Numbered from the stretch's first letter, positions 10,130 through 50,773 are shown. The stretch: DNA of 64,000 nucleotides from Minisyncoccota bacterium (GCA_018060985.1 JAGOUZ010000001.1:21057-85056), one strand, 5' to 3'. Notes: generated by a model from the letters alone, not told the origin. Numbers and translations are program-made.

Positions 10130-10564
10130 CTACAGAATCCTTAGGTCTCCCAGGGTCTGGGCCATCTGCTCGGCATTTGCCTCTATCTGGCGTGTGTACT
10201 CTGACCAAGCACTTTCGCTCCAGAGTTCTACCCGATCGGACACTCCTGCAAGGACTACTGTCGAACCTAACTTAGCGAATTCTTTAAGAAAGTCTGGGAT
10301 GAGGACGCGGCCTGCTCCGTCCACCTCAACCTCAACGGCGCCAGCGAGCAAAAACCTGCTCATGCCTCGCGCGGTTGCTTCGCCGAACGGCAGCTTCTCA
10401 AGTTTTGCCGCTATCTCGTTCCATGTCCGTACGGGAAACAGAAAGAGACATTGGTCTAGCCCTCGAGTAATGACAACCTGTTCGCCGATTTCCTTTCGGA
10501 ATTTCGCCGGGAGAGAGAGGCGTTTTTTGGAGTCTAATGTGTGTTTGTATTCTCCAATCAACAT
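10130..10564 (-). CDS. mraZ: transcriptional regulator MraZ
   Basis: MLIGEYKHTLDSKKRLSLP typical MraZ N-terminus; start trimmed to that Met. Confidence 0.8.
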   Translation of the reverse strand: MLIGEYKHTLDSKKRLSLPAKFRKEIGEQVVITRGLDQCLFLFPVRTWNEIAAKLEKLPFGEATARGMSRFLLAGAVEVEVDGAGRVLIPDFLKEFAKLGSTVVLAGVSDRVELWSESAWSEYTRQIEANAEQMAQTLGDLRIL

Positions 10565-10632
10565 AATCCCACTCTGTCCCACTAGACTAGAGTATACAAC
10601 CACTCTACCCCACCTAGGGCACTTATACACAA

Positions 10633-10661
10633 CTTGACAGAATGTTTTCTATATGCTATAC
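10633..10661 (+). promoter_or_regulatory. sigma70-like promoter TTGACA-N17-TATACT
   Basis: near-consensus -35/-10 with 17-bp spacer. Confidence 0.4.
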
Positions 10662-10719
10662 TCTTTAATGGAAGTACAGGGAGGCGTTCAGCATTCACCC
10701 CCTAGTAGGAGTAGATGAC

Positions 10720-10851
10720 ATGAACGTCCAAACAAAACAATTTCTTATCATGTGCGGCATCGCTTTCTTTCTCTGCTTTTCAGTCACCGTAATCGCCTCT
10801 GACGCGATGGAACGGGTCGGACTTGAGATGCAGGAGATGCTTTGCCACTAA
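10720..10851 (+). CDS. small hydrophobic protein, 43 aa (not in ORF track)
   Basis: ATG preceded by AGGAG at -8, consensus promoter upstream, TM-like N-terminus MNVQTKQFLIMCGIAFFLCF. Confidence 0.4.
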   Translation: MNVQTKQFLIMCGIAFFLCFSVTVIASDAMERVGLEMQEMLCH

Positions 10852-10892
10852 CGAAGAGGGCGCCTCGGAGAAATCCAGGCGCCCTTTAACTT

Positions 10893-12437
10893 TTATTGAG
10901 TTACGTCTTTGAGTCTTTGCACTACAAACTCTTTTTTGAGTGACGAAAGGAACCATCCTGCCTGTGGACCCGATGTTTTATCTAAAAACGAACGGTAAAT
11001 TGCACCAAACAGCTCTGCTGGCGTAATTTTTTGAGTTTCTTTTATATCGTGAAGCTTTTTATGCAACTCTTCTCCACCTGGCATTGCCGGAGCAATTTCA
11101 ATAAAGCTTAAGAGCTCTCGCAGGGCTGCTTTTTGAGTGTCGTTAAGCGAGCGCGCTGCTTCAGGAGTAGATTCCTGCAGCTTAAAGACAAACTTCTCTG
11201 GTGCGTACTGCTCTAACCAGCGCTTTGCATACATTGCGCGCTCATCAAGCTCGGCTTTTTCGGCATCAGGAAACGACGTATAGAGGTCCATATGCGGCAT
11301 CTGCACCATAAATGCCACTTGGCTAAAGCGTGGCAGTACTGATTGCGCGGGAATCTTCCGGTCAGGATGTATCAGCTCAAACAGCCGTGCATAATCGTCT
11401 TTTGTGTCAGTCCAATACCCTGCCGCCAACTTGTCATATTGATCGTAGAGCACGGGTATAGTGTCGCCTTCTGGATCAAAGTTAAATGCTTGGTTAATTT
11501 CTTTCCCCATGAGCGCAAGACGGAAGATCTTTGCCGGCACGAGTTCAGAAATTTCTTTGGCGCTGCTTCCCCGCCCCTTGCTAGACGACATCTTCTTGCC
11601 GCCAACCAAAAAGAACTCATACGGCGCATCCATCGGTGCATCGTACTCAAATATTTCTTTAGCAATATGTGCAGCCACATCTCTCGCGCCGCCCTTGGTC
11701 GAGTGGTCTTTACCGGCGCCTTCTACCATAACGCCCACCACTTTCCATTTTGCCGGCCACTCAACTTTGAACGGGAACTTTGCCTTGCCGCCAAACGGAG
11801 AGACTTTGCCTTCGTGTGAGCAACCTTGCGCCCACTTCACCATCGTGGGTTCGCATTTGTACGACACCTCGCTGCCATCCCATGCAAACACGCGGGTTGT
11901 GCCTACTTTGCCGCACTGCTCACAAATAACCGCAAGTGGAAACCAATCTTCTGGCTTTTGTGAGCCAGAAACTTCTTTATAGATCCGGCGAATATCAGCA
12001 GCATGGTCGAGCGCTATGCGAATCACTTCATCCATCTTCCCCGCAAAGTAGAGCTCGCTCACGTTGTAGAACGTAGGAGTAAAACCTGTTTTTGTGATTA
12101 CCTCTTTAAACTCTTCTGCAAAATATTCTGCGAAGTTTTTTGCCTTGCCATCTGGCGATGGGATATTCCGAAGTGGCTGACCCATATACTGCCGAAAATC
12201 TTCAGGCAAGTATTCTGGAAACCCGTCCATCGGGTCCATGTCGTTAAACTCATAGTTAAAAGTGTTGCCTACACCCTGTTCGGTAAGCGCCTCGGCTATT
12301 GCTCCGTGTATGGCCACGCCGCGCATAGAGCCGACGTGCACACGGCCAGAAGGCGTCTTTTCGTCACGAATAAGGATTTCCTTTCCCTTTCCGTAGCGTT
12401 CAGTAATTTCGCCGGCAAGCCGGTCTGCCCAAAACAT
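10893..12437 (-). CDS. lysK: class I lysyl-tRNA synthetase
   Basis: class I LysRS architecture, HIGH-like (HVGSMRG) and KMSKS-like (KMSSSKG) motifs, 514 aa. Confidence 0.85.
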   Translation of the reverse strand: MFWADRLAGEITERYGKGKEILIRDEKTPSGRVHVGSMRGVAIHGAIAEALTEQGVGNTFNYEFNDMDPMDGFPEYLPEDFRQYMGQPLRNIPSPDGKAKNFAEYFAEEFKEVITKTGFTPTFYNVSELYFAGKMDEVIRIALDHAADIRRIYKEVSGSQKPEDWFPLAVICEQCGKVGTTRVFAWDGSEVSYKCEPTMVKWAQGCSHEGKVSPFGGKAKFPFKVEWPAKWKVVGVMVEGAGKDHSTKGGARDVAAHIAKEIFEYDAPMDAPYEFFLVGGKKMSSSKGRGSSAKEISELVPAKIFRLALMGKEINQAFNFDPEGDTIPVLYDQYDKLAAGYWTDTKDDYARLFELIHPDRKIPAQSVLPRFSQVAFMVQMPHMDLYTSFPDAEKAELDERAMYAKRWLEQYAPEKFVFKLQESTPEAARSLNDTQKAALRELLSFIEIAPAMPGGEELHKKLHDIKETQKITPAELFGAIYRSFLDKTSGPQAGWFLSSLKKEFVVQRLKDVTQ

Positions 12438-40216: not shown

Positions 40217-40372
40217 AGTTCAATCGTGTTTAGGCTCGTAATACCCTCGACCACATAGCAAACTCTACACTAGTACCACTGTGGTTTGCGTGAACGCCCT
40301 ACACGGCTTCCACTCTCAGGAGATACTCGAAAAACCTCAAAAACTATGTATAATCGGGATGTTCGCTCACAT

Positions 40373-40447
40373 TCCGCGGTAGCTCAATGGTAGAGCAGCT
40401 CCCTGTTAAGGAGTTGGTTGTAGGTTCGAGTCCTACCCGCGGAGCCA
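40373..40447 (+). tRNA. tRNA-Asn (GTT), CCA encoded
   Basis: acceptor TCCGCGG/CCGCGGA, D-arm AGCTCAATGGTAGAGC, anticodon loop CTGTTAA, T-arm GTAGGTTCGAGTCCTAC; TATAAT at about 40350. Confidence 0.9.
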
Positions 40448-42016
40448 GTTGGGATTAGCGTCGCCAAAAGCGACGCTTTCCCGTTTAGGAGAGCCACCTT
40501 TAGGAGGTTCGAACCGGTCGTTTTTTCGTCTTACCGAATTTGAGACGAGAATCATCGGCAAAAGCGCAATATCGGTGTCAATGCTGATTATTTTGTCTTT
40601 CAGGAGGAGGTTCGAACCGAGGGCGGATAAAAAGACCTTTCGGGCATGCTGGCCCCGTTCGGTGAAGGCTTCTCTGGCGTCGCTTGCGAACGTGAGCACC
40701 TTGTCGGCCGTCTGCAGCCAACTGTCCACCCGGGCGTCGGTGTCATTCAAAAGTTCGTGGAGTTTTGCTTTCTCCTGATTTATCTCCGACTTCTTTCGTG
40801 CAAATTCTTCTTCGCTTATTTCTCCCGAAGCTCGCATGTCGATGAGCGCGTCGAGCTTCTTTACGCATGCCTCGTAGTTCTGTTGCTGGTTGGCAAGAAT
40901 CGCATTGCGGTCAGCGGCCTCCCGACCATTCTCGTTCTGCAGCCACTTCATTGCCCACTCGTGGAAATCCTCTGGTGGCTTGACCCGGCCAAGAGTATCC
41001 TCGATCTGTTTGTCCAGCTCCTTCACCTCGATGCATTTCTGCTTGCAGGGACCTTTGCGTTTCGTGCAGTGGTAATAAATATATCGGTGGATGTTGCCGT
41101 TCTTATTCCTCTTGGTCTTGTGCTCGGCCGTGACCATGCATCCGCACTCTCCACAGCGGATCATGCCCGTGTAGGCAAAGCTGTGCTCCTCGGGCTTTGG
41201 CTTGCTGCCACGGCCTAGAAGCGCCTGCATGCGGTCGTACTCCTCGCGTGTGATCATTGGCTCGTGCTTGCCCTTGTGCCAGTTGCCCGAGCCTTGCGGC
41301 CACTCGAACCAGCCGTAGTAGAAGGGATTGTAGAGCACGCGGTAGAAACCGCTTCGCGCGAGCTTCTTTAAGCCCCACTGGTTTACTGCGATCTCATGCA
41401 CCCTCGGCGTTGTGTATGTGCCGCTGAGGAGCATGTCGAACATTTTTCGGATGATCGGAAACATCTTCGGGTCTTTGCGTATCGTCTTGAATCCTTTCAT
41501 TTTGTCCGGCGTGTTCATGTAACCGATTGGAGCCGGGCCTGGATGCCAGCCCATCTCTACTTTGCGCCGGAGGCCGCGCTTTACGTCGACGCCTTTGTTG
41601 TCGTTCTCCAATTTCGCCTGGCTGCAGAGGAGGTTGAGAAGGAATTTGTCGTTCGGCGTATTTTTGTAAGCCTGTCCGGGCGTGCGAATGTCCTGAAGCC
41701 TGTTCTGGTCCATGAGATAGACCAGATAGCCGGTGTCGACGGAATTGCGCGAGAGGCGGTTCGGGTGCCAGGCGATGATGCCTTCGGCTTCGCCCTTTTC
41801 GATGCGCTTAATCATCGCGTTGAAGATCTCGCGCCCGGGCGCTTTGGCCGAGTACGATTCTTCGAGGCGCTCCACCACATGGAGCTTCTCTCTTTTTGCG
41901 AGTGCTTCCAATTCGCTCTTTTGCGAGTCTATCGAAAGTACCTGTCTATCTTCTTGTTCGGACGATTTGCGAGCGTAGAGGAAGTACTTGTGCTTTTGCT
42001 GTACTTCCTGGTTCAT
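40433..42016 (-). CDS. large serine recombinase (resolvase/invertase N-domain + recombinase domain + zinc ribbon)
   Basis: catalytic region YARKSSEQEDRQVLSIDSQ, recombinase domain, zinc ribbon CGECGC...YYHC...C, 527 aa; 3' end overlaps tRNA-Asn 3' end. Confidence 0.85.
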   Translation of the reverse strand: MNQEVQQKHKYFLYARKSSEQEDRQVLSIDSQKSELEALAKREKLHVVERLEESYSAKAPGREIFNAMIKRIEKGEAEGIIAWHPNRLSRNSVDTGYLVYLMDQNRLQDIRTPGQAYKNTPNDKFLLNLLCSQAKLENDNKGVDVKRGLRRKVEMGWHPGPAPIGYMNTPDKMKGFKTIRKDPKMFPIIRKMFDMLLSGTYTTPRVHEIAVNQWGLKKLARSGFYRVLYNPFYYGWFEWPQGSGNWHKGKHEPMITREEYDRMQALLGRGSKPKPEEHSFAYTGMIRCGECGCMVTAEHKTKRNKNGNIHRYIYYHCTKRKGPCKQKCIEVKELDKQIEDTLGRVKPPEDFHEWAMKWLQNENGREAADRNAILANQQQNYEACVKKLDALIDMRASGEISEEEFARKKSEINQEKAKLHELLNDTDARVDSWLQTADKVLTFASDAREAFTERGQHARKVFLSALGSNLLLKDKIISIDTDIALLPMILVSNSVRRKNDRFEPPKGGSPKRESVAFGDANPNWLRG

Positions 42017-42018
42017 GG

Positions 42019-42732
42019 CTATTGTGTGAGGTTAAATTCCTTCAGCGCGTTCCTGTATAAATCGATCGTGTTGTTGTAGCTGAAGATGTATCCGTTTGAG
42101 GCGATGCCGACTTGGATGAATGGGGCGCGTTCTGCTTCTGCGCCGTTCGGCAATTCGCTTGCGTAGCCCATGTCATTCCAGGTGAAGAAGAGGTTGCTGC
42201 CCTCCGGTCGGCCGGTCTTGCTGTTGTTCTCGAAGGTAAGCGTCGACTCTACCTGTGCGAAGTTCGGATATACCTTTGCGAGGAATGCGCGGACCTGCTG
42301 CTCAAGTTCTGCGGATGTTTTTGCGTTGCCGGTGTAATCCACCTCCCGGTGGAATGCGACGACCTGGTTTGTCTTGGGGTCTACCTCGGCGTACTCGTTA
42401 TCGGTCGCGCCTCTGAATTTGAGTGCCATTTCGTCGACGAGTCCGACGCTCTTTACTTCGTTGACCTGCTGCACGATGCCGAAGTTTGCGTAGCCTCCGT
42501 AGGTCGGCTGGGCGCTAAAGTCGTATTGTGCGCCTCCGGCTGCCTCTACCGCGCTCTTAAGAGATTTCGTGGCCTGGCTTAGGTCTGTCTGGCTCACAGC
42601 CCCCTCTCTTGGGGCCATATCGCCTGAATTCGGGACCTTATGCCCGAAGAGGTAGTAACTGCCGACCGCGAGTACTGCGATGGCGACGAGTGCTATTACG
42701 CCGTTTGTTGCTGTTTTTGTCATTGTGTTCAC
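42019..42732 (-). CDS. membrane-anchored/secreted hypothetical protein (237 aa), GC-elevated
   Basis: N-terminal TM, no recognisable domain; stop abuts recombinase start. Confidence 0.5.
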   Translation of the reverse strand: MNTMTKTATNGVIALVAIAVLAVGSYYLFGHKVPNSGDMAPREGAVSQTDLSQATKSLKSAVEAAGGAQYDFSAQPTYGGYANFGIVQQVNEVKSVGLVDEMALKFRGATDNEYAEVDPKTNQVVAFHREVDYTGNAKTSAELEQQVRAFLAKVYPNFAQVESTLTFENNSKTGRPEGSNLFFTWNDMGYASELPNGAEAERAPFIQVGIASNGYIFSYNNTIDLYRNALKEFNLTQ

Positions 42733-42931
42733 TAATTTAATTGATAATCTCTACCAACCTAACACTGGTCCTACTGGTGGAAGAAGTCAAACGATCATAG
42801 TGGTTTTTCTGGTCGCCTTTTGGTCGCCTGTTGTATAACCCTTTTCCGAGGGAGAGGGCCAAATATACCCGTCGCGTCCCCGATGGCACACCGCAAACCT
42901 GTACCGATGCTGTTCGCCTCTTGTCCGGGTC

Positions 42932-43065
42932 ATTTTCCGCCCAAGTTTTACCCAAGGTTTGCCCAAGCTCTTTAGGCGATTTTCCACCCCCATTTCACCC
43001 ACACTTTGCCCACATCTGCCTGTCGATTTCCACCCCAGTTTTACCCCAATGTTACCCCAGATACC
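42932..43065. repeat. iteron-like array: about 10 degenerate direct repeats TTT(T)NCCCA(A/C) at 12-13 bp spacing, followed by an AT-rich tract (43085-43210)
   Basis: attttccgcccaag / ttttacccaagg / tttgcccaagc / ttttccaccccca / atttcacccacac / tttgcccacatc / atttccaccccag / ttttaccccaa / gttaccccag. Confidence 0.55.
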
Positions 43066-43211
43066 CGTCGTCTCCCCGAAGCCGTACCGAACCTGCTTTT
43101 TAGCCCCTTTTGAGACTTTTAACGTTGTTAATGCTGATAATTTCATAGTTATACACAGATGGTTAGAGGGTCTTAATAATTCTTTTTATTTCTAAAGTCT
43201 TAATAAGGGGT

Positions 43212-43649
43212 TCATGGTGGTCTCGGGCGAGGGACCATAGTGGTCCCTGACCGGAGACCACTATGGTCTCCGGTGCTCATAAGGTGGGGATAAATGCGGT
43301 ACTGCGTTCCGGGCCAATGGCCATGCTCCGGTGAATCCTGTTTTGTTTCGATAAGCCCGAGTGCTACAAGTCGCTTTCGGACGCGTTTGCATGTCGAGGT
43401 ACCAAAACCATACGCCTCGAATCCGCGCTCCTTGCCTTTGCGTGTATTGAAAGATTTATCTGTGTGCCAGAACCAACCGTCCCTATCCGCGAAGCGGTTG
43501 GAGAGATGACAGAGAACTATGAAAAAGTCGCGCTCTGCGTGCGATAGCGTACCGCGCAGATGGTCACTGTCGAACGCGACGTGAGGAGCAAGGAAAAAGT
43601 TCGAGTGCTTATCGCTCGATTTCCGGTTCGGCTGGTCCATACTGTTCAC
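43212..43649 (-). CDS. hypothetical protein with winged-HTH-like segment; candidate replication initiator for the adjacent iterons
   Basis: ORF next to iterons plus AT-rich region; wHTH-like STCKRVRKRLVALGLIE; 3' end carries 13-bp perfect inverted repeat. Confidence 0.4.
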   Translation of the reverse strand: MNSMDQPNRKSSDKHSNFFLAPHVAFDSDHLRGTLSHAERDFFIVLCHLSNRFADRDGWFWHTDKSFNTRKGKERGFEAYGFGTSTCKRVRKRLVALGLIETKQDSPEHGHWPGTQYRIYPHLMSTGDHSGLRSGTTMVPRPRPP

Positions 43650-43911
43650 TAAATATTTCGGCTACTTTTTCACTAACGGCTTGCTCGACCTGCAAGCCGA
43701 CCTCTGGGTTTATTGGATGAAAGATATTGATGTTCTGCCCGGCCACTTTGCGCGTCGGGTACACGAGCCGGTATCCGCCATCCTTCCTGCTGAATACGGC
43801 CACCGATCCCATCCAGAATTTTCCATCGAGCACAAACGAAACGAACCCCACCATGCCGTCCTGGGGTTTAACCGCGTAGAACTGTATTTCGCTAATGGTT
43901 GTTGAGGTCAT
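43609..43911 (-). CDS. SpoVG-family protein
   Basis: VSFVLDGKF..GSVAVFSRK..G..YRLVYPTRKV...INIFHPINPEVGLQVEQAV matches SpoVG core. Confidence 0.6.
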   Translation of the reverse strand: MTSTTISEIQFYAVKPQDGMVGFVSFVLDGKFWMGSVAVFSRKDGGYRLVYPTRKVAGQNINIFHPINPEVGLQVEQAVSEKVAEIFSEQYGPAEPEIER

Positions 43912-44086
43912 GGCTTTTCACTACTTTTTCTTTGAAGTCGTCGATGTTTGGTTCGCCCATGTAGGTGATCTTGTAGAGCTTGAAAAGATTGTTCGCACGC
44001 AAAGACGCCTCCTCGTCGGAGAGCTTCACGCCGTAGCGCTTTTCGTAGAGGTTTTTAAATTCTTGGATTGCTTCTTGGGGCAACAT
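43892..44086 (-). CDS. small hypothetical protein (64 aa)
   Basis: ORF overlapping SpoVG-like start; co-directional. Confidence 0.35.
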   Translation of the reverse strand: MLPQEAIQEFKNLYEKRYGVKLSDEEASLRANNLFKLYKITYMGEPNIDDFKEKVVKSHDLNNH

Positions 44087-44451
44087 AAAAGGCTGGCCCC
44101 TGCGCGGAGTCAGCCTTAGTTGGTCGTATCAAATGGTCGGTTCGAATCTGGGCTTAGGCCACAGAGGGATTATGGAAATGCAAAACGGGACCGCTTGCAG
44201 TGCTGTCCCGTCATTCGTACCTATCAGCTTTGGAGTTTCACTCGGACAAATCTAGTACCTATAGCGTAGCTGATTTGCCAGCATCCCGTCAAGGACTGGC
44301 TGTGGGTATGTGGCTAAACTGCCACAGGGACTGCGTTTTCAACTAATTCAAAGAATTGATTTGAATTCAAGATTTCTGTCCGGGTACTGCAATGAGATCA
44401 GGTATTCCAGCTCGTTCGTGTGCCCGGATTTGATATGGCATCCGTAGGGCG

Positions 44452-45798
44452 TTAGTGACCACTATGGTCAACGCTCGCGTTGCCGTAAAAGATATCAGGT
44501 CGCTCCTCTCCTTCAACCTCAATAATCGCCCAAGCTCCTTTGTTCATGCGAGCGAGGGCGTGGTCAACTAGCACGATGTTGCCGGGCACCTCTGGGGTAA
44601 ATTCAACAATAGTTGCGCCACCTGGTAAAACCGCAGTTGTTTGGATATTTTCATGCGGCTCAGCATCGATACCACCCTCAGCATAAACTGTGTCCCATAT
44701 CTCGCCGATCGGGTGGAATGACGAAATGAGATTCACACCACCATTTCCAACGAAAATGCGCACCCTCTCACCTGTTTTTACTTTCATGCGTGGGTGTCCG
44801 TCGGTCTCGATACGTCCGTTGAAGGTCACATAATTTGGCAAACCATCAAGGAGTGCGTTGCCGTCGAAAATAGTAAGTCCCTTCTTTCCAATCTCACCTT
44901 TGGTATAAAGCTCACCTTGCACAAGATAAAACTCTTTATCGACGGGGGGCAACCCTTCTTTTGGTTCGACTAGGATAAGTCCGTACTGTCCGTGTGAGTT
45001 ATGTGTACTCACGTTTGGTGTCGCACAGTGATAAATGTAAAGGCCCGGTTGAAGCGCCTTCCATGTAAACACTTTTGTCTCACCGGGCTCGACGCGCGAA
45101 AGCGTTGAACCACCCCCCGGGCCAGTTACTGCGTGAAGGTCAATGTTGTGTGCATGGAGGCTCGACGGATGATTGGTAATTGTCATTTCGACCATGTCTC
45201 CTTCGAGCACGCGCAGCATCGGTCCGGGCACTTGCTTATTGAACGTCCAGTAGTTGAAATAGATACCTTTGGCCACTTCGGCGATCACCTCCTGTGCTGT
45301 AAGAGATATCCTAACGGTTTCGTTTGTGTCTCGGCTGATGGGCGGCGGAACATTGTTAGGGTCGGCACCTATGTCCTCGACATACTCAAAGTTTTTAAAG
45401 TTCTTTATGAACACAAGTACGTTCTTGAATGGGAGGTCGGGAAGCGCTCCACCTGGGTGATAGACATGCATGAACGCGGGCATTGCAAAATGTGGCGAGT
45501 AGGTTTTATCTGCCCACATGTATAAAAGTCCTGCAGCCATAATTACGCCAAATGTGACCGCAAGAATCTTTGAATGCACACGATATAGAAGGCGGAGTAT
45601 GAAGAAGGAGAGCGCCAAGACCACAATCGTAATGGCCCCACCCTGCATCACCGAGTAATGAATGAATGGATAGAAAGTGATCAGATTTCCAAAGCCAAAG
45701 TATGAAAACATGCTAATGAAGCCCAGGAGCACAAGGATACCGATACCAATGCCGATCTTAGTCATTGGACGACTCATCTTTCTGTATTTGAACTCCAT
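44452..45798 (-). CDS. nirK: copper-containing nitrite reductase (NirK)-family two-cupredoxin-domain protein with about 130-aa N-terminal multi-TM extension
   Basis: HNIDLHAVTGPGGG (T1/T2 Cu His motif), IYHCATPNVSTHNSHGQ (Cys/His T1 ligands; Gln at the usual axial Met position by manual alignment), 448 aa. Confidence 0.7.
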   Translation of the reverse strand: MEFKYRKMSRPMTKIGIGIGILVLLGFISMFSYFGFGNLITFYPFIHYSVMQGGAITIVVLALSFFILRLLYRVHSKILAVTFGVIMAAGLLYMWADKTYSPHFAMPAFMHVYHPGGALPDLPFKNVLVFIKNFKNFEYVEDIGADPNNVPPPISRDTNETVRISLTAQEVIAEVAKGIYFNYWTFNKQVPGPMLRVLEGDMVEMTITNHPSSLHAHNIDLHAVTGPGGGSTLSRVEPGETKVFTWKALQPGLYIYHCATPNVSTHNSHGQYGLILVEPKEGLPPVDKEFYLVQGELYTKGEIGKKGLTIFDGNALLDGLPNYVTFNGRIETDGHPRMKVKTGERVRIFVGNGGVNLISSFHPIGEIWDTVYAEGGIDAEPHENIQTTAVLPGGATIVEFTPEVPGNIVLVDHALARMNKGAWAIIEVEGEERPDIFYGNASVDHSGH

Positions 45799-45809
45799 AG
45801 TATCAATCG

Positions 45810-46172
45810 CTAATATGGGATTTTACAATCCTCAAAGCAATGTGCGCTGCGGTTAAGTGTATAAATGCGCTCCCTACCACGATCTTCGCTTTTCACCGCA
45901 TCAACTGATCGAAGGACGTTGAGGTGGTGTGTCACGGTCGGCTGCTTCAGTTTTACTTGCTCGGTAAGTTCTCCAACCGTCATGCCTTCCTTAGCTTTAC
46001 CAAGCATGCACACAAGGTTGTAGCGACTCCTGTCGCCGACTACCTTAAAGCAATCGGGGCACAGTTCCTCTTCACCGCTCGTAACCCATTCGGGGCGCGG
46101 ATATGTTTTTTCTTCTTTACCATGAACCGGTTTCGTGTTGCGACGCTTTATCCCCAACGATTTCTTATTCAT
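45810..46172 (-). CDS. ArsR/SmtB-family metalloregulator
   Basis: HTH region YNLVCMLGKAKEGMTVGELTEQVKLKQPTVTHHLNVL; Cys pairs CPDC and CFEDC; directly upstream of nirK. Confidence 0.7.
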   Translation of the reverse strand: MNKKSLGIKRRNTKPVHGKEEKTYPRPEWVTSGEEELCPDCFKVVGDRSRYNLVCMLGKAKEGMTVGELTEQVKLKQPTVTHHLNVLRSVDAVKSEDRGRERIYTLNRSAHCFEDCKIPY

Positions 46173-46232
46173 AGATGAACATCTATATGTATTATGTATA
46201 GACACTTATCAATATAACAATACCAAACCCCT

Positions 46233-47525
46233 ATGTCCAAGACACAATCCCCAGGTCTCACCGAGATAATTAAGCGCGACGGCTCAAGAGTTCCTTTTGA
46301 TAAGAAGAAGATCGTTATTGCTGTCGAGAAGGCCATGCGGGCTGCTGGGGAGTACGCGGAACATGCACCGGATATTGTCGCGGACGCGGTTGTGAAAACG
46401 CTTGCCGAAAAAAAGAAAGCGGACGACAGCTTCATTCCTTCAGTGGAGGGCGTACAAGATGAGGTCGAGCGAGTGTTGATGCTTGAAGAATTTCCTACTA
46501 CAGCAAAATCGTACATACTCTATCGCCAAGAACATGCGCTCCTACGGAAACGAGATATTTTCAAAAAGCGCATTAACCTTAAGCCGTACGAATATCCGGA
46601 ACTTTTAGAGTATGTCGATGCGATTCGTCATTCCTATTGGATACACACCGAGTTCAACTTCACGAGTGATATTCAGGACTTCAAGGTACACGTGACGCCT
46701 GCCGAGCGCACCGCAATCAAGAACGCGATGCTCGCAATCGCACAAATCGAGGTCTCGGTGAAAACATTCTGGGGGAATATCTATCATAAGCTACCGAAGC
46801 CGGAGATCGGCAATGTGGGCTACACGTTCGCGGAGAGTGAGGTACGACACCAAGATGCGTATGCCCATCTTCTTGAGATACTTGGGTTGAATCACGAGTT
46901 TGAAAAAATAAAGGAGATGCCAGCCATTCTGAAGCGTGTGAACTATCTTGAGAAGTCAATACAGCATGCGAAGAGCGACGACAATCGCGACTATGCGCAG
47001 TCCATTCTCCTTTTCTCACTCTTCGTCGAACATGTGTCGCTATTTTCGCAGTTCCTTATCATCATGGCGTTTAACAAGCATAAGAACATCTTCAAAGGAA
47101 TCTCGAATGTGATCGAGGCAACTTCAAAAGAGGAGCAAATACATGGTCTCTTCGGTATCGACATCATCAACATCATCAAACAGGAGCACCCCGAATGGTT
47201 TGACGACGCGTATAACGAAGCCATTATTGAATCGTGTCGTGAGGCGTACGAGGCGGAGAGTGCGATTGTTGATTGGATTTTCGAGGATGGCGAGCTTGAA
47301 CATATTCCCTCTGCGGTTGTGAAGGAGTTCATTAAAAACCGCTTTAACAACTCACTCTCTTCCATTGGTCTGCCGCGCATCTTTCCGACCGATGCAAAAC
47401 TGCTCGATAAAACCGAATGGTTCGACGATGAAGTTATCGCAACCAAGCATGGCGATTTCTTCGTGAAGCGCTCCATCAACTACAACAAACGCAGCAAGAG
47501 TATTACTGAGGATGATCTTTTTTAA
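46233..47525 (+). CDS. nrdB: class I ribonucleotide reductase beta subunit with N-terminal ATP-cone
   Basis: ATP-cone (IIKRDGSRVPFDKKKI...AKSYILYRQEHA) fused to ferritin-like R2 (AESEVRHQDAY, EEQIHG) with C-terminal EDDLF tail. Confidence 0.8.
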   Translation: MSKTQSPGLTEIIKRDGSRVPFDKKKIVIAVEKAMRAAGEYAEHAPDIVADAVVKTLAEKKKADDSFIPSVEGVQDEVERVLMLEEFPTTAKSYILYRQEHALLRKRDIFKKRINLKPYEYPELLEYVDAIRHSYWIHTEFNFTSDIQDFKVHVTPAERTAIKNAMLAIAQIEVSVKTFWGNIYHKLPKPEIGNVGYTFAESEVRHQDAYAHLLEILGLNHEFEKIKEMPAILKRVNYLEKSIQHAKSDDNRDYAQSILLFSLFVEHVSLFSQFLIIMAFNKHKNIFKGISNVIEATSKEEQIHGLFGIDIINIIKQEHPEWFDDAYNEAIIESCREAYEAESAIVDWIFEDGELEHIPSAVVKEFIKNRFNNSLSSIGLPRIFPTDAKLLDKTEWFDDEVIATKHGDFFVKRSINYNKRSKSITEDDLF

Positions 47526-47533
47526 TTCAACAT

Positions 47534-49204
47534 ATGTACTGGCTCAATGAAAACAGTAGGACGTTTCTCGCTAAAGGATACCTTCGTACCGGAGACAGCC
47601 CCGAAGCTCGCATCAGATTTATCGCTAACCGAGCCCAAGAAATACTTGGCATCGAAGGATTCGCCGACAAGTTTTACGAGTACATGTCACGCGGCTACTA
47701 CTCGCTTGCAACACCGGTGTGGGCGAACTTTGGTCTGCGCAAAGGTCTCCCGATCAGTTGCTTCGGCTCTTACATCGGCGACACCATGGGAGACATACTC
47801 TTTACACAAGCCGAGGCGGGAATGATGAGTAAGTTTGGTGGCGGCACATCCGGCTATTTTGGTGCTCTGCGTGGACGCGGCGCACCAATTACTGACAATG
47901 GTGTTTCGTCTGGCTCCGTGCATTTCATGCGTCTCTTTGAGAGCGTCGTGAATGTCGTATCACAAGGAGCAACACGGCGTGGGCACTTCTCCCCCTATCT
48001 TCCCATTGATCACCTGGATATCGAAGAGTTCCTCGAGATTGGCACCGAAGGAAATCCTATTCAAGAACTCACGCACGCAGTATGTGTAAGCGATGAATGG
48101 ATGAAGCAGATGATCGCAGGTGATGCGGCGAAGCGTGCAGTCTGGGCTAAGGTGCTGCAACGCCGTTCGCAGATGGGCTACCCGTACATATTCTTTACCG
48201 ATACCGTAAATAACAACACGGTCGATGTGTACAAAGATAAAGGGCTTCGCATCCACGCGAGCAATCTATGCAGCGAAATCGCCCTGCCCGCAGGTGCGGA
48301 ATGGTCATTCGTGTGCGATCTCTCGTCGCTCAACCTCCTTCACTTCGAGTTGTGGAAGGACACGGATGCGGTTGAGACGCTCGTGTATTTCCTTGATGCG
48401 GTCATGACCGACTTTATCGGTAAGCTCGAAGAAATGCGCGACTCGGAGTCGAGAGAACACAGACTGGCGTTTCAGTTTATGGAGCGAGCATACAACTTTG
48501 CCGTGGCGAACCGCGCACTTGGCGTTGGCGTACTCGGTTGGCACTCGCTCTTGCAGAGCAAGATGCTTTCGTTTGAGAGCATGGAAGCAGCAAAGCTCAA
48601 TGTTCAAATCTTCAAGACGATCAAAGAGCGCGCCTATGCGGCATCCGCAGAGCTCGCAAACCTGTACGGCGAGCCAGAGGTTCTTAAAGGATATGGTCGC
48701 CGCAATACCACGCTCATGGCGATTGCTCCGACGACATCGTCAGCGTTCATTCTCGGGCAAGTTTCGCAGAGCATCGAGCCGGTATGGTCCAACTGCTACG
48801 TGAAAGACATCGACAAAATGAAAGTGACGATCAAAAATCCATTTCTTGAAAAGCTGCTCGAAGAGAAAGGAAAAAATGACAAAGAGACATGGCACAGTGT
48901 CCGCGATAATGACGGCTCGGTACAGCATCTTCCGTTCCTGACGCAAGAAGAAAAGGATGTTTTTAAGACGTTCGCTGAGATCGACCAGTACGCTGTCGTC
49001 GGACAGGCAGCGGTACGGCAGCTGTATATCGACCAGAGTCAGTCACTCAACCTCATGATCAATCCCAAGACTCCAACCAAAGATGTGAACGCGCTATACA
49101 TCGAAGCATGGAAGCAGGGCGTGAAGTCGCTTTATTATCAACACAGCATGAACGCAGCACAGACTCTCAACAGGAAGAAGCTCTGCGTTAATTGCGAAGC
49201 CTAA
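47534..49204 (+). CDS. nrdA: class I ribonucleotide reductase alpha subunit lacking ATP-cone
   Basis: active-site NLCSEI, C-terminal Cys pair (CVNCEA), 556 aa, no N-terminal cone. Confidence 0.85.
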   Translation: MYWLNENSRTFLAKGYLRTGDSPEARIRFIANRAQEILGIEGFADKFYEYMSRGYYSLATPVWANFGLRKGLPISCFGSYIGDTMGDILFTQAEAGMMSKFGGGTSGYFGALRGRGAPITDNGVSSGSVHFMRLFESVVNVVSQGATRRGHFSPYLPIDHLDIEEFLEIGTEGNPIQELTHAVCVSDEWMKQMIAGDAAKRAVWAKVLQRRSQMGYPYIFFTDTVNNNTVDVYKDKGLRIHASNLCSEIALPAGAEWSFVCDLSSLNLLHFELWKDTDAVETLVYFLDAVMTDFIGKLEEMRDSESREHRLAFQFMERAYNFAVANRALGVGVLGWHSLLQSKMLSFESMEAAKLNVQIFKTIKERAYAASAELANLYGEPEVLKGYGRRNTTLMAIAPTTSSAFILGQVSQSIEPVWSNCYVKDIDKMKVTIKNPFLEKLLEEKGKNDKETWHSVRDNDGSVQHLPFLTQEEKDVFKTFAEIDQYAVVGQAAVRQLYIDQSQSLNLMINPKTPTKDVNALYIEAWKQGVKSLYYQHSMNAAQTLNRKKLCVNCEA

Positions 49205-49217
49205 TTGAAAAAGTACT

Positions 49218-49589
49218 ATGGAACTCTCAAACGAAGTTATCGATCTCCTGCTCAACGCTGACAGCAAAGCACTTGCCACGACGGGTCCAAACGGTCTCAA
49301 CGTCGTACCGGTTTCAACGATCCGCGTCGTTGATGGAAAGATTTTGCTTATGAACTACTTCTTTAGGAAAACTATCGAAAATATCGCTGTTCAACCCCAA
49401 GTGTCGCTCGTAGGATGGAAGGGTTTCGATGGGTACCAAGTAAAAGGTAACGTCTTGTATGTGACTGAAGGTCCTCAGTTTGACGAAGCAAAGGCGTGGG
49501 TAGCACAAAACCTGCGTGATCGAATCGTCAAAGGACTCCTTATCCTCACGCCCGAAGCCATATACAACATTTCGCCGACCACAACATAA
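49218..49589 (+). CDS. PNPOx-like FMN-binding split-barrel protein
   Basis: 123 aa, pyridoxamine-5'-phosphate-oxidase-like pattern. Confidence 0.5.
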   Translation: MELSNEVIDLLLNADSKALATTGPNGLNVVPVSTIRVVDGKILLMNYFFRKTIENIAVQPQVSLVGWKGFDGYQVKGNVLYVTEGPQFDEAKAWVAQNLRDRIVKGLLILTPEAIYNISPTTT

Positions 49590-49595
49590 AAATTC

Positions 49596-50291
49596 ATGTT
49601 TGTCGATGTTTCCGAATATATTGTACTGGCACGGAAGCAGGAAACATGCACCACGACCACGCTTACACTCGCGAAATCGGACGGCTCTATTCCTCAGTAC
49701 CGTCCAGGGCAGTGCCTCACGGTATATTTCACCGATTTTAGTCCCACGCTCGGTAAGCAGTACAGCATATCGAGCGCGCCATGTGAACAAATGTGCGCCA
49801 TAACAGTGAAGGCGATAGGAAGATTCTCCAATCGATTGTGTTCACTAGTTCCAGGAAATCGGATACTCGCTTCCGACCCACAGGGCAACTTTTGTCCTAC
49901 ATGGGAACGTAGTATGGTTCTCCTCGCTGGCGGCATGGGTATCACTCCTTTTCGAAGCGTTATTGTCGAGGCAATGTTGCTATCTCTCAATCCACAAATA
50001 AAGCTCTTTTATAGCAACAAGCTTTCAACAGATATGCCTTTTGGAAATGAACTATATTTACTTTCCCAGCAATACTCTCCGTTTAGTATCGAGCGGTTTG
50101 TTACTAAAGAGCCAACTTCGTCTACGGAGTTAAGGTATCGTCGAATGCGTCCAGATGACATTCTCAGCATACGCGACCCTCAAATCGAATACTTAATCAG
50201 TGGCTCGCTCAACTTTGTCCTCGGACTCAAGAACGCGCTCGTAGTAGCGGGTGTGGATCGGGCAAACATATTAACCGAGTCATATTTTTGA
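49596..50291 (+). CDS. ferredoxin-NADP reductase-like oxidoreductase (FAD + NAD(P) domains)
   Basis: RxYS-type FAD motif (KQYSIS), GGMGITP NAD(P) motif. Confidence 0.6.
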   Translation: MFVDVSEYIVLARKQETCTTTTLTLAKSDGSIPQYRPGQCLTVYFTDFSPTLGKQYSISSAPCEQMCAITVKAIGRFSNRLCSLVPGNRILASDPQGNFCPTWERSMVLLAGGMGITPFRSVIVEAMLLSLNPQIKLFYSNKLSTDMPFGNELYLLSQQYSPFSIERFVTKEPTSSTELRYRRMRPDDILSIRDPQIEYLISGSLNFVLGLKNALVVAGVDRANILTESYF

Positions 50292-50603
50292 CAGCACGAA
50301 TACGTATGTATTTATTTGCTAGCGAGCGCGAAGGAAGATAATTAAAATAGTGGCGGAGTATCCTGACGGCAGCATTCATCTCTTAGGAGGATCATCCCCG
50401 CTGCGGATGTACTTTCTCCATCCACCGCATGGTTTCCTCGTCGAACGGCTCCTCGTTCCGGAGGACTTTGACGGCTGCGTCCATTTCGTAGGAGTGCCAA
50501 CCGTTCTGAATGACGGTTCGAAGTTCTCGCGCTGCTCGGAGCATGATAACGACAGACCCTGCCTTGTGCAGGGTTTCGTCGTATCACGAGCACTCGCGAG
50601 CGT

Positions 50604-50697
50604 AGGGCTCGAACCGCAGGCACCCAAAAATAAGGAATCCTATGACTATATTTTTGGGGTGTTCCGACCGAAGGGAGGGGCGAGCCCTACCCGCGGA
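50604..50697. repeat. nested imperfect palindrome at the island boundary, containing the attR-like copy of the tRNA-Asn 3' end
   Basis: outer arms gcgtagggctcg / cgagccctac; inner arms cacccaaaaata / tatttttggggtg; right arm equals tRNA 3'-end repeat 50679-50697. Confidence 0.45.
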
Positions 50698-50773
50698 GCA
50701 AATTTTGACGGATATAATATATTGTGTTATATTCTTTTTGAGTAGTTCCCGCCCAATGTAAAGGAGAACGGCA

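Follow-up and report, generated by a model that had tools for sequence, protein, structure and literature searches.

Do the short repeats, AT-rich tract and winged-helix gene that lie side by side in a bacterial mobile element make up a replication origin, or has the element kept them for another purpose? The question is raised by 64,000 nucleotides of DNA from a Minisyncoccota bacterium (GCA_018060985.1 JAGOUZ010000001.1:21057-85056), a stretch that we call the window and number from its first letter. At positions 42932-43649 a preliminary description had placed a plasmid-like origin of the iteron type, with repeats, an unwinding element and a Rep gene, and had taken the element around it for an integrative plasmid or phage-plasmid. 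The element is an island of 10.3 kb (about 40427-50699) integrated at a tRNA-Asn gene of this Patescibacteria (candidate phyla radiation, CPR) genome, and its repeats occupy a slot that in many related islands holds terS, the gene for a small terminase subunit. We lean, with modest confidence, towards reading the array as terminase-recognition (pac-like) modules through which a phage-satellite-like island would be packaged by helper phages.

The repeat array and the slot it occupies

The repeats are real and non-random, but where about ten copies at 12-13 bp spacing had been described we find nine units of 11 bp, grouped three by three into 33-nt modules (42929-43062). The period within each module is 11 bp, successive modules start 44-47 bp apart, and the units are unevenly spaced overall. 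A lagged self-identity of at least 17/22 over 33 nt is reached at lag 11 by exactly three stretches of the window (42935, 42982 and 43026), at lags 9, 10, 12 or 13 by no stretch of it, and by none in 20 shuffles. The short pattern TTTNCCCA by itself is not enriched in the window (11 observed, 9 expected). The array and its borders, in plus-strand numbering, comprise:

42929-42969, minus strand: module 3, three 11-bp units with the word CTTGGG, reading agCTTGGGcaaacCTTGGGtaaaaCTTGGGcggaaaat on the minus strand
42976-43016, minus strand: module 2, three 11-bp units with the word GTGGG/TGGGG, gatGTGGGcaaagtGTGGGtgaaatGGGGGtggaaaat
43022-43062, minus strand: module 1, three 11-bp units with the word TGGGGT
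42865-42893, unstranded: distal copy of a 29-nt direct repeat, beginning ATACCCGTCGCGTCCCCGA and 79% identical to 43061-43089
43061-43089, unstranded: proximal copy of the 29-nt direct repeat, homologous to the terS codons just preceding the module position
43093-43146, minus strand: relic of the terS 5' end, ATGAAATTATCAGCATTAACAACG...AAGCAG, recognised by translation and by alignment with related island L011 and the intact terS of islands L003 and L005
42810-42833, minus strand: two GGCGACC units of 11 bp (TRF period 11), within 42781-42833 ahead of a gene for a 237-aa protein
42794-42804, minus strand: degenerate dyad ACCACTATGAT, ahead of the 237-aa gene
42785-42790, minus strand: conserved TTGACT, a -35-like box, ahead of the 237-aa gene

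The 29-nt direct repeat thus flanks the array on both sides, and its distal copy corresponds to the terS codons for 'GxGxxxGIW', in another reading frame. When the array is aligned with that of the closest relative, L006, indels of 28, 10, 13, 15 and 1 nt appear; because these are not all multiples of three, the open reading frames (ORFs) over the array are non-coding, and a coding low-complexity region is rejected as an explanation of the repeats in the window. The preliminary description had likewise dismissed these ORFs as spurious, which holds, except that the minus-strand ORF 42787-43146 opens with the terS relic, and that in relatives and phages a homologous module lies within intact terS. 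In the window and in L011, the first ~54 nt of terS and the codons ahead of the module position are still present. Two other identities for the modules were tried and dropped: as DnaA boxes they reach at best 7/9 matches by inspection, and a role as DNA-uptake sequences does not fit, the rest of the window showing no enrichment of their words.

Genome, metagenome and assembly look-ups yielded about 80 related loci, essentially all from metagenome-assembled genomes of Patescibacteria, in a family of which we found no description in the literature. The loci have one backbone order in common: p66, a SpoVG-like protein, a winged helix-turn-helix (wHTH) protein, a variable slot, a membrane protein and a large serine recombinase. 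The slot holds a terS-like gene in many islands and a non-coding array in the rest, among them the window's island and its closest relatives. The slot gene, of 185-207 aa, matches phrog_6299 'terminase small subunit' (E 1e-8), and we identify it as terS because its homologues sit in synteny with the large-subunit gene, terL, in viral contigs. Arrays contain from one to about 11 modules, each made of three copies of one 5-7-nt word phased at 11 bp, and the word changes from module to module. With few exceptions the spacing within modules is 11+11; units follow the consensus tT(G/T)GG(G/A)nnAAAn, the linkers follow xAAAx with AAAAC as the second, and the tail is GGAWTT; other words in the family are GGCGAC, GGCGGA, CATCGG, TGTCGG, CTTCA(N), TGCAC and TGTGAC.

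The presence of terS and the size of the array are inversely related. Over the 76 loci for which modules and terS were counted, at least one module is present in 41 of the 48 islands that lack terS (mean 2.5; most of the seven exceptions are truncated), and in 7 of the 28 that have it, where there is one apiece, inside terS. The slot is about 22 times as dense in modules as the remaining sequence of the loci. Strict mutual exclusion of terS and modules is rejected, since some terS genes hold one internal module.

An array in the place of a lost gene might be a functionless scar, that is, decaying remains of terS, expanded by replication slippage and retained through recent common descent. Such a scar would suit the persistence of the terS start and pre-module codons in the window and in L011, the 29-nt repeat that brackets the array, and an identity between the window and L006 that is not clearly higher in the array than in the flanking DNA. 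We nevertheless regard it as very unlikely. Intact modules are found in that large share of the terS-less islands across several CPR phyla, with the same 11+11 spacing, linker consensus and tail, and arrays reach about 11 modules with different words, which the decay of a single terS cannot have supplied.

The largest array, at 10520-11020 of locus L068, has about 11 consecutive modules at 10-12-bp spacing, each with its own word three times (once four times): TGGCAC, TTGCAC, TGGGT, GTGGGA, TTGGAT, GGCGGA, TGTGAC, CTTCAA, TGTCCGT, TGTCGGT and CATCGGT.

Modules and dyads in phage terS regions

Homologues of the island TerS, at 45-51% identity, are encoded by nine viral contigs of IMG/VR (L090-L098). 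In all nine, terS overlaps a downstream ORF of about 515-528 aa, which proved to be a large terminase in each of the four tested (GpA_ATPase, E 6e-20 to 2e-12, above the Pfam cut-off). Phage terS genes carry modules of their own, situated where the loop between the helices of the N-terminal helix-turn-helix is encoded: that of L090 is ggTTGGGGcaaagTGGGGGtgaaaTGGGGGtggaattt, with the words TTGGGG/TGGGGG, and TTGGGG occurs three times in terS of L093/L094, as does CTTCAC in that of L095. The three units of the L090 module begin in codon phases 0, 2 and 1, so selection on the protein cannot maintain the repeat, and it represents a DNA (or RNA) signal inside the gene. Module 2 of the window (42982-43011) is 96.7% identical to the L090 terS module over 30 nt; module 3 is 82% identical to the module within terS of island L046 and 77% to that of phage L091; module 1 is about 68% identical to terS-embedded modules.

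The correspondence with phages extends to a second set of repeats, on the far side of the AT-rich tract, at the 3' end of the wHTH gene:

43212-43640, minus strand: stand-alone wHTH protein of 142 aa, with a weak resemblance to the DNA-binding domains at the N terminus of replication initiators
43207-43274, unstranded: three sites of dyad symmetry, spaced 21-23 bp apart, within a stretch that overlaps the final ~20 wHTH codons
43250-43274: dyad 1, ACCGGAGACCACTATGGTCTCCGGT
43230-43248: dyad 2, AGGGACCATAGTGGTCCCT
43207-43224: dyad 3, degenerate

Two dyads, GGGACCAnnnTGGTC, recur directly upstream of the terS ATG of L090 with the same 23-bp spacing (81% identity over 42 nt), and the version found in Parcubacteria-type islands occurs upstream of terS in L093/L094. 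Islands of that type likewise match phages L093/L094, L098 and L091. In pac-type phages the packaging signal is often in or next to terS (P22, Sf6, SPP1); the viral contigs studied here have their modules within terS and their dyads no more than 60 nt upstream of its ATG. Both repeat sets that flank the AT-rich tract of the window are phage terS-proximal cis sequences, and the sister islands' TerS homologues, together with window modules and dyads that match phage terS regions, are what packaging hijack would be expected to leave at the sequence level. In the examined parts of the nine viral contigs no homologue of the wHTH protein, the SpoVG-like protein, p66 or the recombinase was found, nor did a collection-wide scan of viral contigs turn up wHTH relatives. 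Across phages and islands the module word tracks the class of TerS helix, TT[IL]ExWSKK, for example, going with T(T/G)GGG, RTLAxWSKK with CTTCA, and RNIE[KQ]WS with CATCGG.

Mimicry of a pac site by a satellite, next to its origin, is documented for the phage-inducible chromosomal island-like element (PLE) of Vibrio cholerae and phage ICP1, where transduction requires a 14-bp match within an 89-bp region (PMC11417361). The window's island resembles PLE in being a terminase-less integrative island with what would be a short copy of a helper packaging signal beside an origin region, here the 30-nt stretch that is almost identical to a phage terS-internal module, plus the shared upstream dyads. 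It differs in its tandem multi-word module array in the slot of a lost terS, in its Patescibacteria hosts and large serine recombinase, and in that no packaging-redirection proteins were seen and packaging is predicted from sequence. Helper packaging sites are also mimicked by Staphylococcus aureus pathogenicity islands (SaPIs) that carry cos sites, such as SaPIbov5. With SaPIs and other phage-inducible chromosomal islands that have a TerS of their own, the family has in common the TerS homologue of the sister islands, an integrase, site-specific insertion at a tRNA gene, a size near 10 kb, and cargo (restriction-modification, KAP NTPase, Fic); here, by contrast, a primase-helicase Rep, an identified master repressor and capsid-remodelling genes are all absent, and the window's island has lost terS. 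Among phages, the pac region of Bacillus phage SPP1 has TerS-binding boxes (pacL and pacR) phased at about one helical turn on bent DNA and spanning the terS start, and P22 and Sf6 have their pac sites inside terS. A packaging signal of phased short repeats with intrinsic bending, upstream of and inside terS, is the point of likeness; the sequences are unrelated.

TerS reads its packaging signal through an N-terminal helix-turn-helix displayed on an oligomeric ring, and phased A-tracts bend DNA. The large serine recombinase has integrated the 10.3-kb island into tRNA-Asn. In the mechanism that we propose, the module would be a pac-type packaging signal read by the helix-turn-helix of a phage TerS, with its phased A-tracts letting the DNA wrap round the TerS oligomer. 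Islands that retain terS have zero or one module, within that gene; those that lost it, the window's included, have retained and multiplied the module and retained the dyads that precede terS in phages, and a helper phage's TerS and TerL could package the island by way of these modules and dyads. Modules with different words in one array might, more speculatively, widen the range of usable helpers. TerS binding, packaging and dependence on helper phages are all things that we infer. On this evidence the element, which is mobile as had been supposed, fits the description of a phage-satellite-like island better than that of an integrative plasmid.

Several points weigh against packaging modules. 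Strict modules are present only in L090, L093/L094 and L095, those of L091 and L098 being looser and those of L092, L096 and L097 weaker, and for the island words TTGGAT, GGCGAC and GGCGGA none of the nine phage contigs has an equivalent embedded in terS. The association of word with helix class could be plain linkage, both being in one gene. Direct searches of IMG/VR with module sequences matched unrelated DNA only, namely chance stretches of giant-virus DNA and arm-type integrase sites of unrelated prophages. The role of the module as pac site in phages L090-L098 is itself putative; these candidate helpers are known only as IMG/VR contigs, and none is tied to this host. Finally, the position of the array, with an AT-rich tract and a Rep-like protein as its neighbours, is compatible with an origin of the SaPI type as well, a reading that we weigh below.

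Six prophage contigs among the IMG/VR matches (L037-L042) have TGGGGTGAAACTGGGGTGAAAA doublets just past a tRNA-like 3' end (TTCAAATCC T-loop) and a terminator. These doublets look like arm-type integrase sites, and their likeness in architecture is due to chance and not to homology.

Since A-tracts phased at 11 bp imply intrinsic curvature, the array might instead be regulatory or architectural DNA, a curved platform read by the wHTH protein, the SpoVG-like protein or a host factor, that controls a membrane-protein/recombinase promoter about 60-100 bp downstream and, in phages, the expression of terS and terL. Arrays always stop shortly before a conserved box, TTTGACTTC, which is kept at the same place before the 237-aa gene in relatives and which in the window is abutted by the GGCGACC units and the degenerate dyad. 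We rate such a platform quite improbable: it leaves unexplained both the rise in module number upon loss of terS and the coexistence of many words, and the phage module lies mid-gene, not at a promoter.

A more tentative extension of the packaging reading is that the islands are a widespread satellite family of Patescibacteria whose packaging signal is a 'library' of modules, each word serving one class of TerS, and which many helpers could package. If true, packaging by many helpers would explain recombinase identities near 85% across CPR phyla. To our knowledge, neither a phage-satellite family of this kind in Patescibacteria nor a three-by-11-bp module with word-specific variants has been described, CPR mobile elements are almost unknown, and CPR bacteria mostly lack conjugation systems. 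A family of satellites that ride on phages would then be a concrete route for gene flow among CPR bacteria, a flow that takes in the defence systems of sister islands and, in the window's island, a copper oxidase, ArsR and ribonucleotide reductase. The modular array would be a new way to a broad helper range, and an entire group of uncultured phages, to whose terminase recognition sites such arrays would point, would have its pac site in the 33-nt module of terS.

The AT-rich tract and the winged-helix gene

The tract between the two repeat sets is as AT-rich as first described, with a GC content of 0.27-0.32 across 43100-43219 against 0.53-0.63 on either flank. Its features are:

43100-43210, unstranded: AT-rich tract, with two copies of GTCTTAATAA (43170-43179 and 43197-43206)
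43149-43157, plus strand: DnaA-box match TTATACACA, which fits the consensus TTATNCACA and reads TGTGNATAA on the minus strand

By its composition and its place next to the repeats, the tract resembles the unwinding element of an iteron origin, with melting as a prediction. It is conserved in islands with and without terS, and its ~95 bp between dyads and terS are the sole part of the arrangement for which the phage contigs offer no equivalent; L090 and L093/L094 have the dyads directly against the terS start, with no AT-rich tract between. The DnaA-box match recurs in 13 related loci, between +54 and +65 relative to the wHTH stop, with variation at its N position alone, and is absent upstream of phage terS. 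It lies 2-3 nt ahead of the start codon of terS (or its relic), where a promoter is expected, and could alternatively be part of the -10 region or promoter for the terS relic; a simple promoter scan gave nothing convincing on the minus strand around it.

The dyads are conserved across the island family, and the pattern ACCAnnnTGGT occurs four times in the window against 0.05 expected. Two of these copies are extra ones of which related islands have none: 40275-40285, outside the island and 100 bp left of the tRNA, and 44458-44468, which forms the final codons (..DHSGH*) of the copper-oxidase gene 44452-45798 and echoes the 'DHSG' that the dyad encodes in the wHTH tail. The idea that the dyads are operators or iterons of the wHTH protein is weakened because these dyads also precede terS in phage contigs, which yielded no wHTH homologue.

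The gene described at 43212-43649 is real, lies on the minus strand and does encode a winged helix, in the structural model. Its start is probably the ATG at 43640 and not the GTG at 43649, because the homologues are 142 aa; relative to its strand, the AT-rich tract and repeats are downstream. The model, of moderate quality (pLDDT 70, core 83-91), is a winged helix-turn-helix with disordered ends, the disordered C-terminal tail being the part encoded by the dyads. Its best four Foldseek matches are all RepA N-terminal domains (4pt7, 4pql, 5kbj; E 0.015-0.03, probability about 1, TM 0.45-0.5), and PHROG 270 (E 8e-6) and 428 (E 3e-4), 'replication initiation protein', match it in an alignment confined to the N-terminal wHTH part of the profile. 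All matches of sequence or fold are weak, and all are to the DNA-binding N-terminal domains of replication initiators. Pfam gave only the RP-C N-terminal family (E 0.052, 13.8 bits, under the 24.4 cut-off) and no RepA_N, an NCBIfam scan gave no match, and a sequence search of the PDB found nothing relevant; no relative was found in viral contigs, cultured phages or plasmid collections. An exhaustive profile search gathered 65 relatives, nearly all of 100-170 aa, with no fusion to an effector, helicase, primase or loader, the longer members having no informative extra domains. We conclude that the wHTH protein resembles initiator DNA-binding domains only weakly and belongs to no Rep family. The RepA_N initiators supply its best fold matches, but there is no match at the sequence level, no C-terminal domain and no Pfam RepA_N hit.

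What these findings do not bear out is the canonical iteron layout with a Rep gene. The threshold of no Rep family in Pfam or NCBIfam was reached, and the array, of 11-bp units in triplets with differing words, lies in the terS slot. A classical iteron origin, of the Rep_3, RepA_N, RPA or TrfA kind, repeats a single iteron of 17-22 bp several times, generally at intervals of about 22 bp, and the iteron is specific to its Rep. Repeats, an AT-rich tract and a winged-helix gene are thus insufficient for annotating an iteron origin. The autonomous replication that had been proposed found no support in contig structure either: 7 whole Logan contigs and 29 whole metagenome contigs, 36 in total, showed no terminal overlap that would indicate a circular form, and every long contig shows the element integrated beside a tRNA.

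A closer parallel is the SaPI origin, where rep is directly followed by an AT-rich region that iterons flank left and right (PMC9371898). A rep-like gene, repeated sites, an AT-rich tract and short direct repeats follow one another here in the same order, so that the wHTH protein might be an initiator that binds dyads and modules on either side of the tract and melts it, allowing the excised island to replicate. The weak matches of the wHTH protein to initiator domains point the same way, as does the conserved DnaA-box consensus. Headful packaging, moreover, would need a replicating concatemer, for which the wHTH protein is the sole candidate initiator. Head-to-tail direct repeats of 11 bp are also typical of winged-helix sites, such as OmpR/PhoB boxes and those of lambda Xis. 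We still think it unlikely that the repeats are the binding sites of such an origin. Phage terS regions for which no homologue of the wHTH protein was detected have modules and dyads too; under the strict criterion, the majority of terS-bearing islands contain no module; and in the wHTH family no Rep threshold is reached and no helicase, primase or loader domain is found anywhere, nor were circular contigs found. The words differ within the array and across the family, whereas the wHTH recognition helix is nearly invariant, which fits a single conserved target and not varied words. The SaPI Rep, for its part, combines a helicase with a winged helix at the C terminus and has a single iteron word; here there is a bare 142-aa winged helix with several words, and both repeat sets recur in phage terS regions.

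This leaves the part that is specific to the islands. That the AT-rich tract, the DnaA-box consensus and the wHTH protein together are a replication origin and its initiator is a serious but tentative possibility, in which the origin would lie in the AT-rich tract; the tract and the wHTH protein may alternatively be the promoter of the slot and its regulator.

The island around the array

The borders and the remaining backbone of the island are as follows:

40373-40447, plus strand: tRNA-Asn(GTT), attL (ARAGORN, Rfam); the recombinase stop region extends over its final ~15 nt
50677-50699, plus strand: tRNA-Asn 3'-end remnant, attR, GGGGCGAGCCCTACCCGCGGAGC (pattern search, blastn)
40433-42016, minus strand: large serine recombinase (integrase) of 527 aa; Pfam Resolvase, Recombinase, Zn_ribbon_recom and SHOCT; phrog_95 integrase, E 1e-65
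42019-42732, minus strand: membrane-anchored protein of 237 aa, a variable backbone gene upstream of the recombinase, with homologues in related islands
43609-43911, minus strand: SpoVG-like protein of 100 aa, present in all islands; Pfam SpoVG, E 1.5e-7, above cut-off; overlaps the wHTH gene
43892-44086, minus strand: conserved protein of 64 aa (p66 family), encoded by the gene that opens the backbone operon
44087-44305, minus strand: conserved non-coding leader of the backbone operon, containing hairpins that resemble terminators; five islands are 76-84% identical here over ~220 nt

Read from right to left on the minus strand, the order is 64-aa protein, SpoVG-like protein, wHTH protein, array, 237-aa membrane protein and serine recombinase. 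The span of 10.3 kb follows from the displaced copy of the tRNA 3' end at the right border; a right end at about 44100 was considered and rejected, as 44087-44305 is conserved backbone and the attR remnant lies farther out. The overlap of the recombinase stop with the tRNA recurs in most related islands, and besides that tRNA no known RNA family was found in the region (ARAGORN, Rfam). With its integrase, site-specific integration and size, the island falls in the range of phage satellites (about 10-15 kb); of a satellite's replication module it has the small Rep-like wHTH protein and the AT-rich tract, and no helicase or primase domain was found. Between CPR phyla the recombinase is 80-88% identical, and it abuts tRNA-Asn in most loci and tRNA-Gln in some. 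Sister islands have defence-type cargo (methylase with helicase and KAP NTPase, XhoI restriction-modification, PIN-TPR, Fic).

Cargo in the window's island (44452-50300) is metabolic and not defensive, comprising a two-domain multicopper oxidase (nitrite-reductase-like) and an ArsR-family regulator, both Pfam-scanned, two ribonucleotide-reductase-like ORFs (430 and 556 aa), a 123-aa ORF and a 231-aa ORF. In the leader at 44087-44305, a TTGAC box precedes two hairpins that have T-runs and look like terminators, one of the hairpins ending at the start codon; the consensus fold of the leader includes one covarying pair only, and the leader may act on the backbone operon in the manner of an attenuator. 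Weak homologues of the 237-aa membrane protein (tblastn E 4e-8 to 6e-5) lie 3-4.5 kb downstream of terS in phage contigs (9243-9368 in L090; 9148-9387 and 10577-10987 in L091), and its gene may be a second backbone gene of phage origin.

Four WWE3 genome and metagenome contigs (L024, L062-L064) have truncated backbones, with p66, SpoVG and wHTH but neither array nor membrane protein nor recombinase, and probably represent decayed islands. Five others (L002, L005, L008, L012 and L013) stop 25-135 nt past the recombinase gene, that is, inside the tRNA, as would be expected if the junction were heterogeneous in the population, with occupied and empty sites or several insertion contexts.

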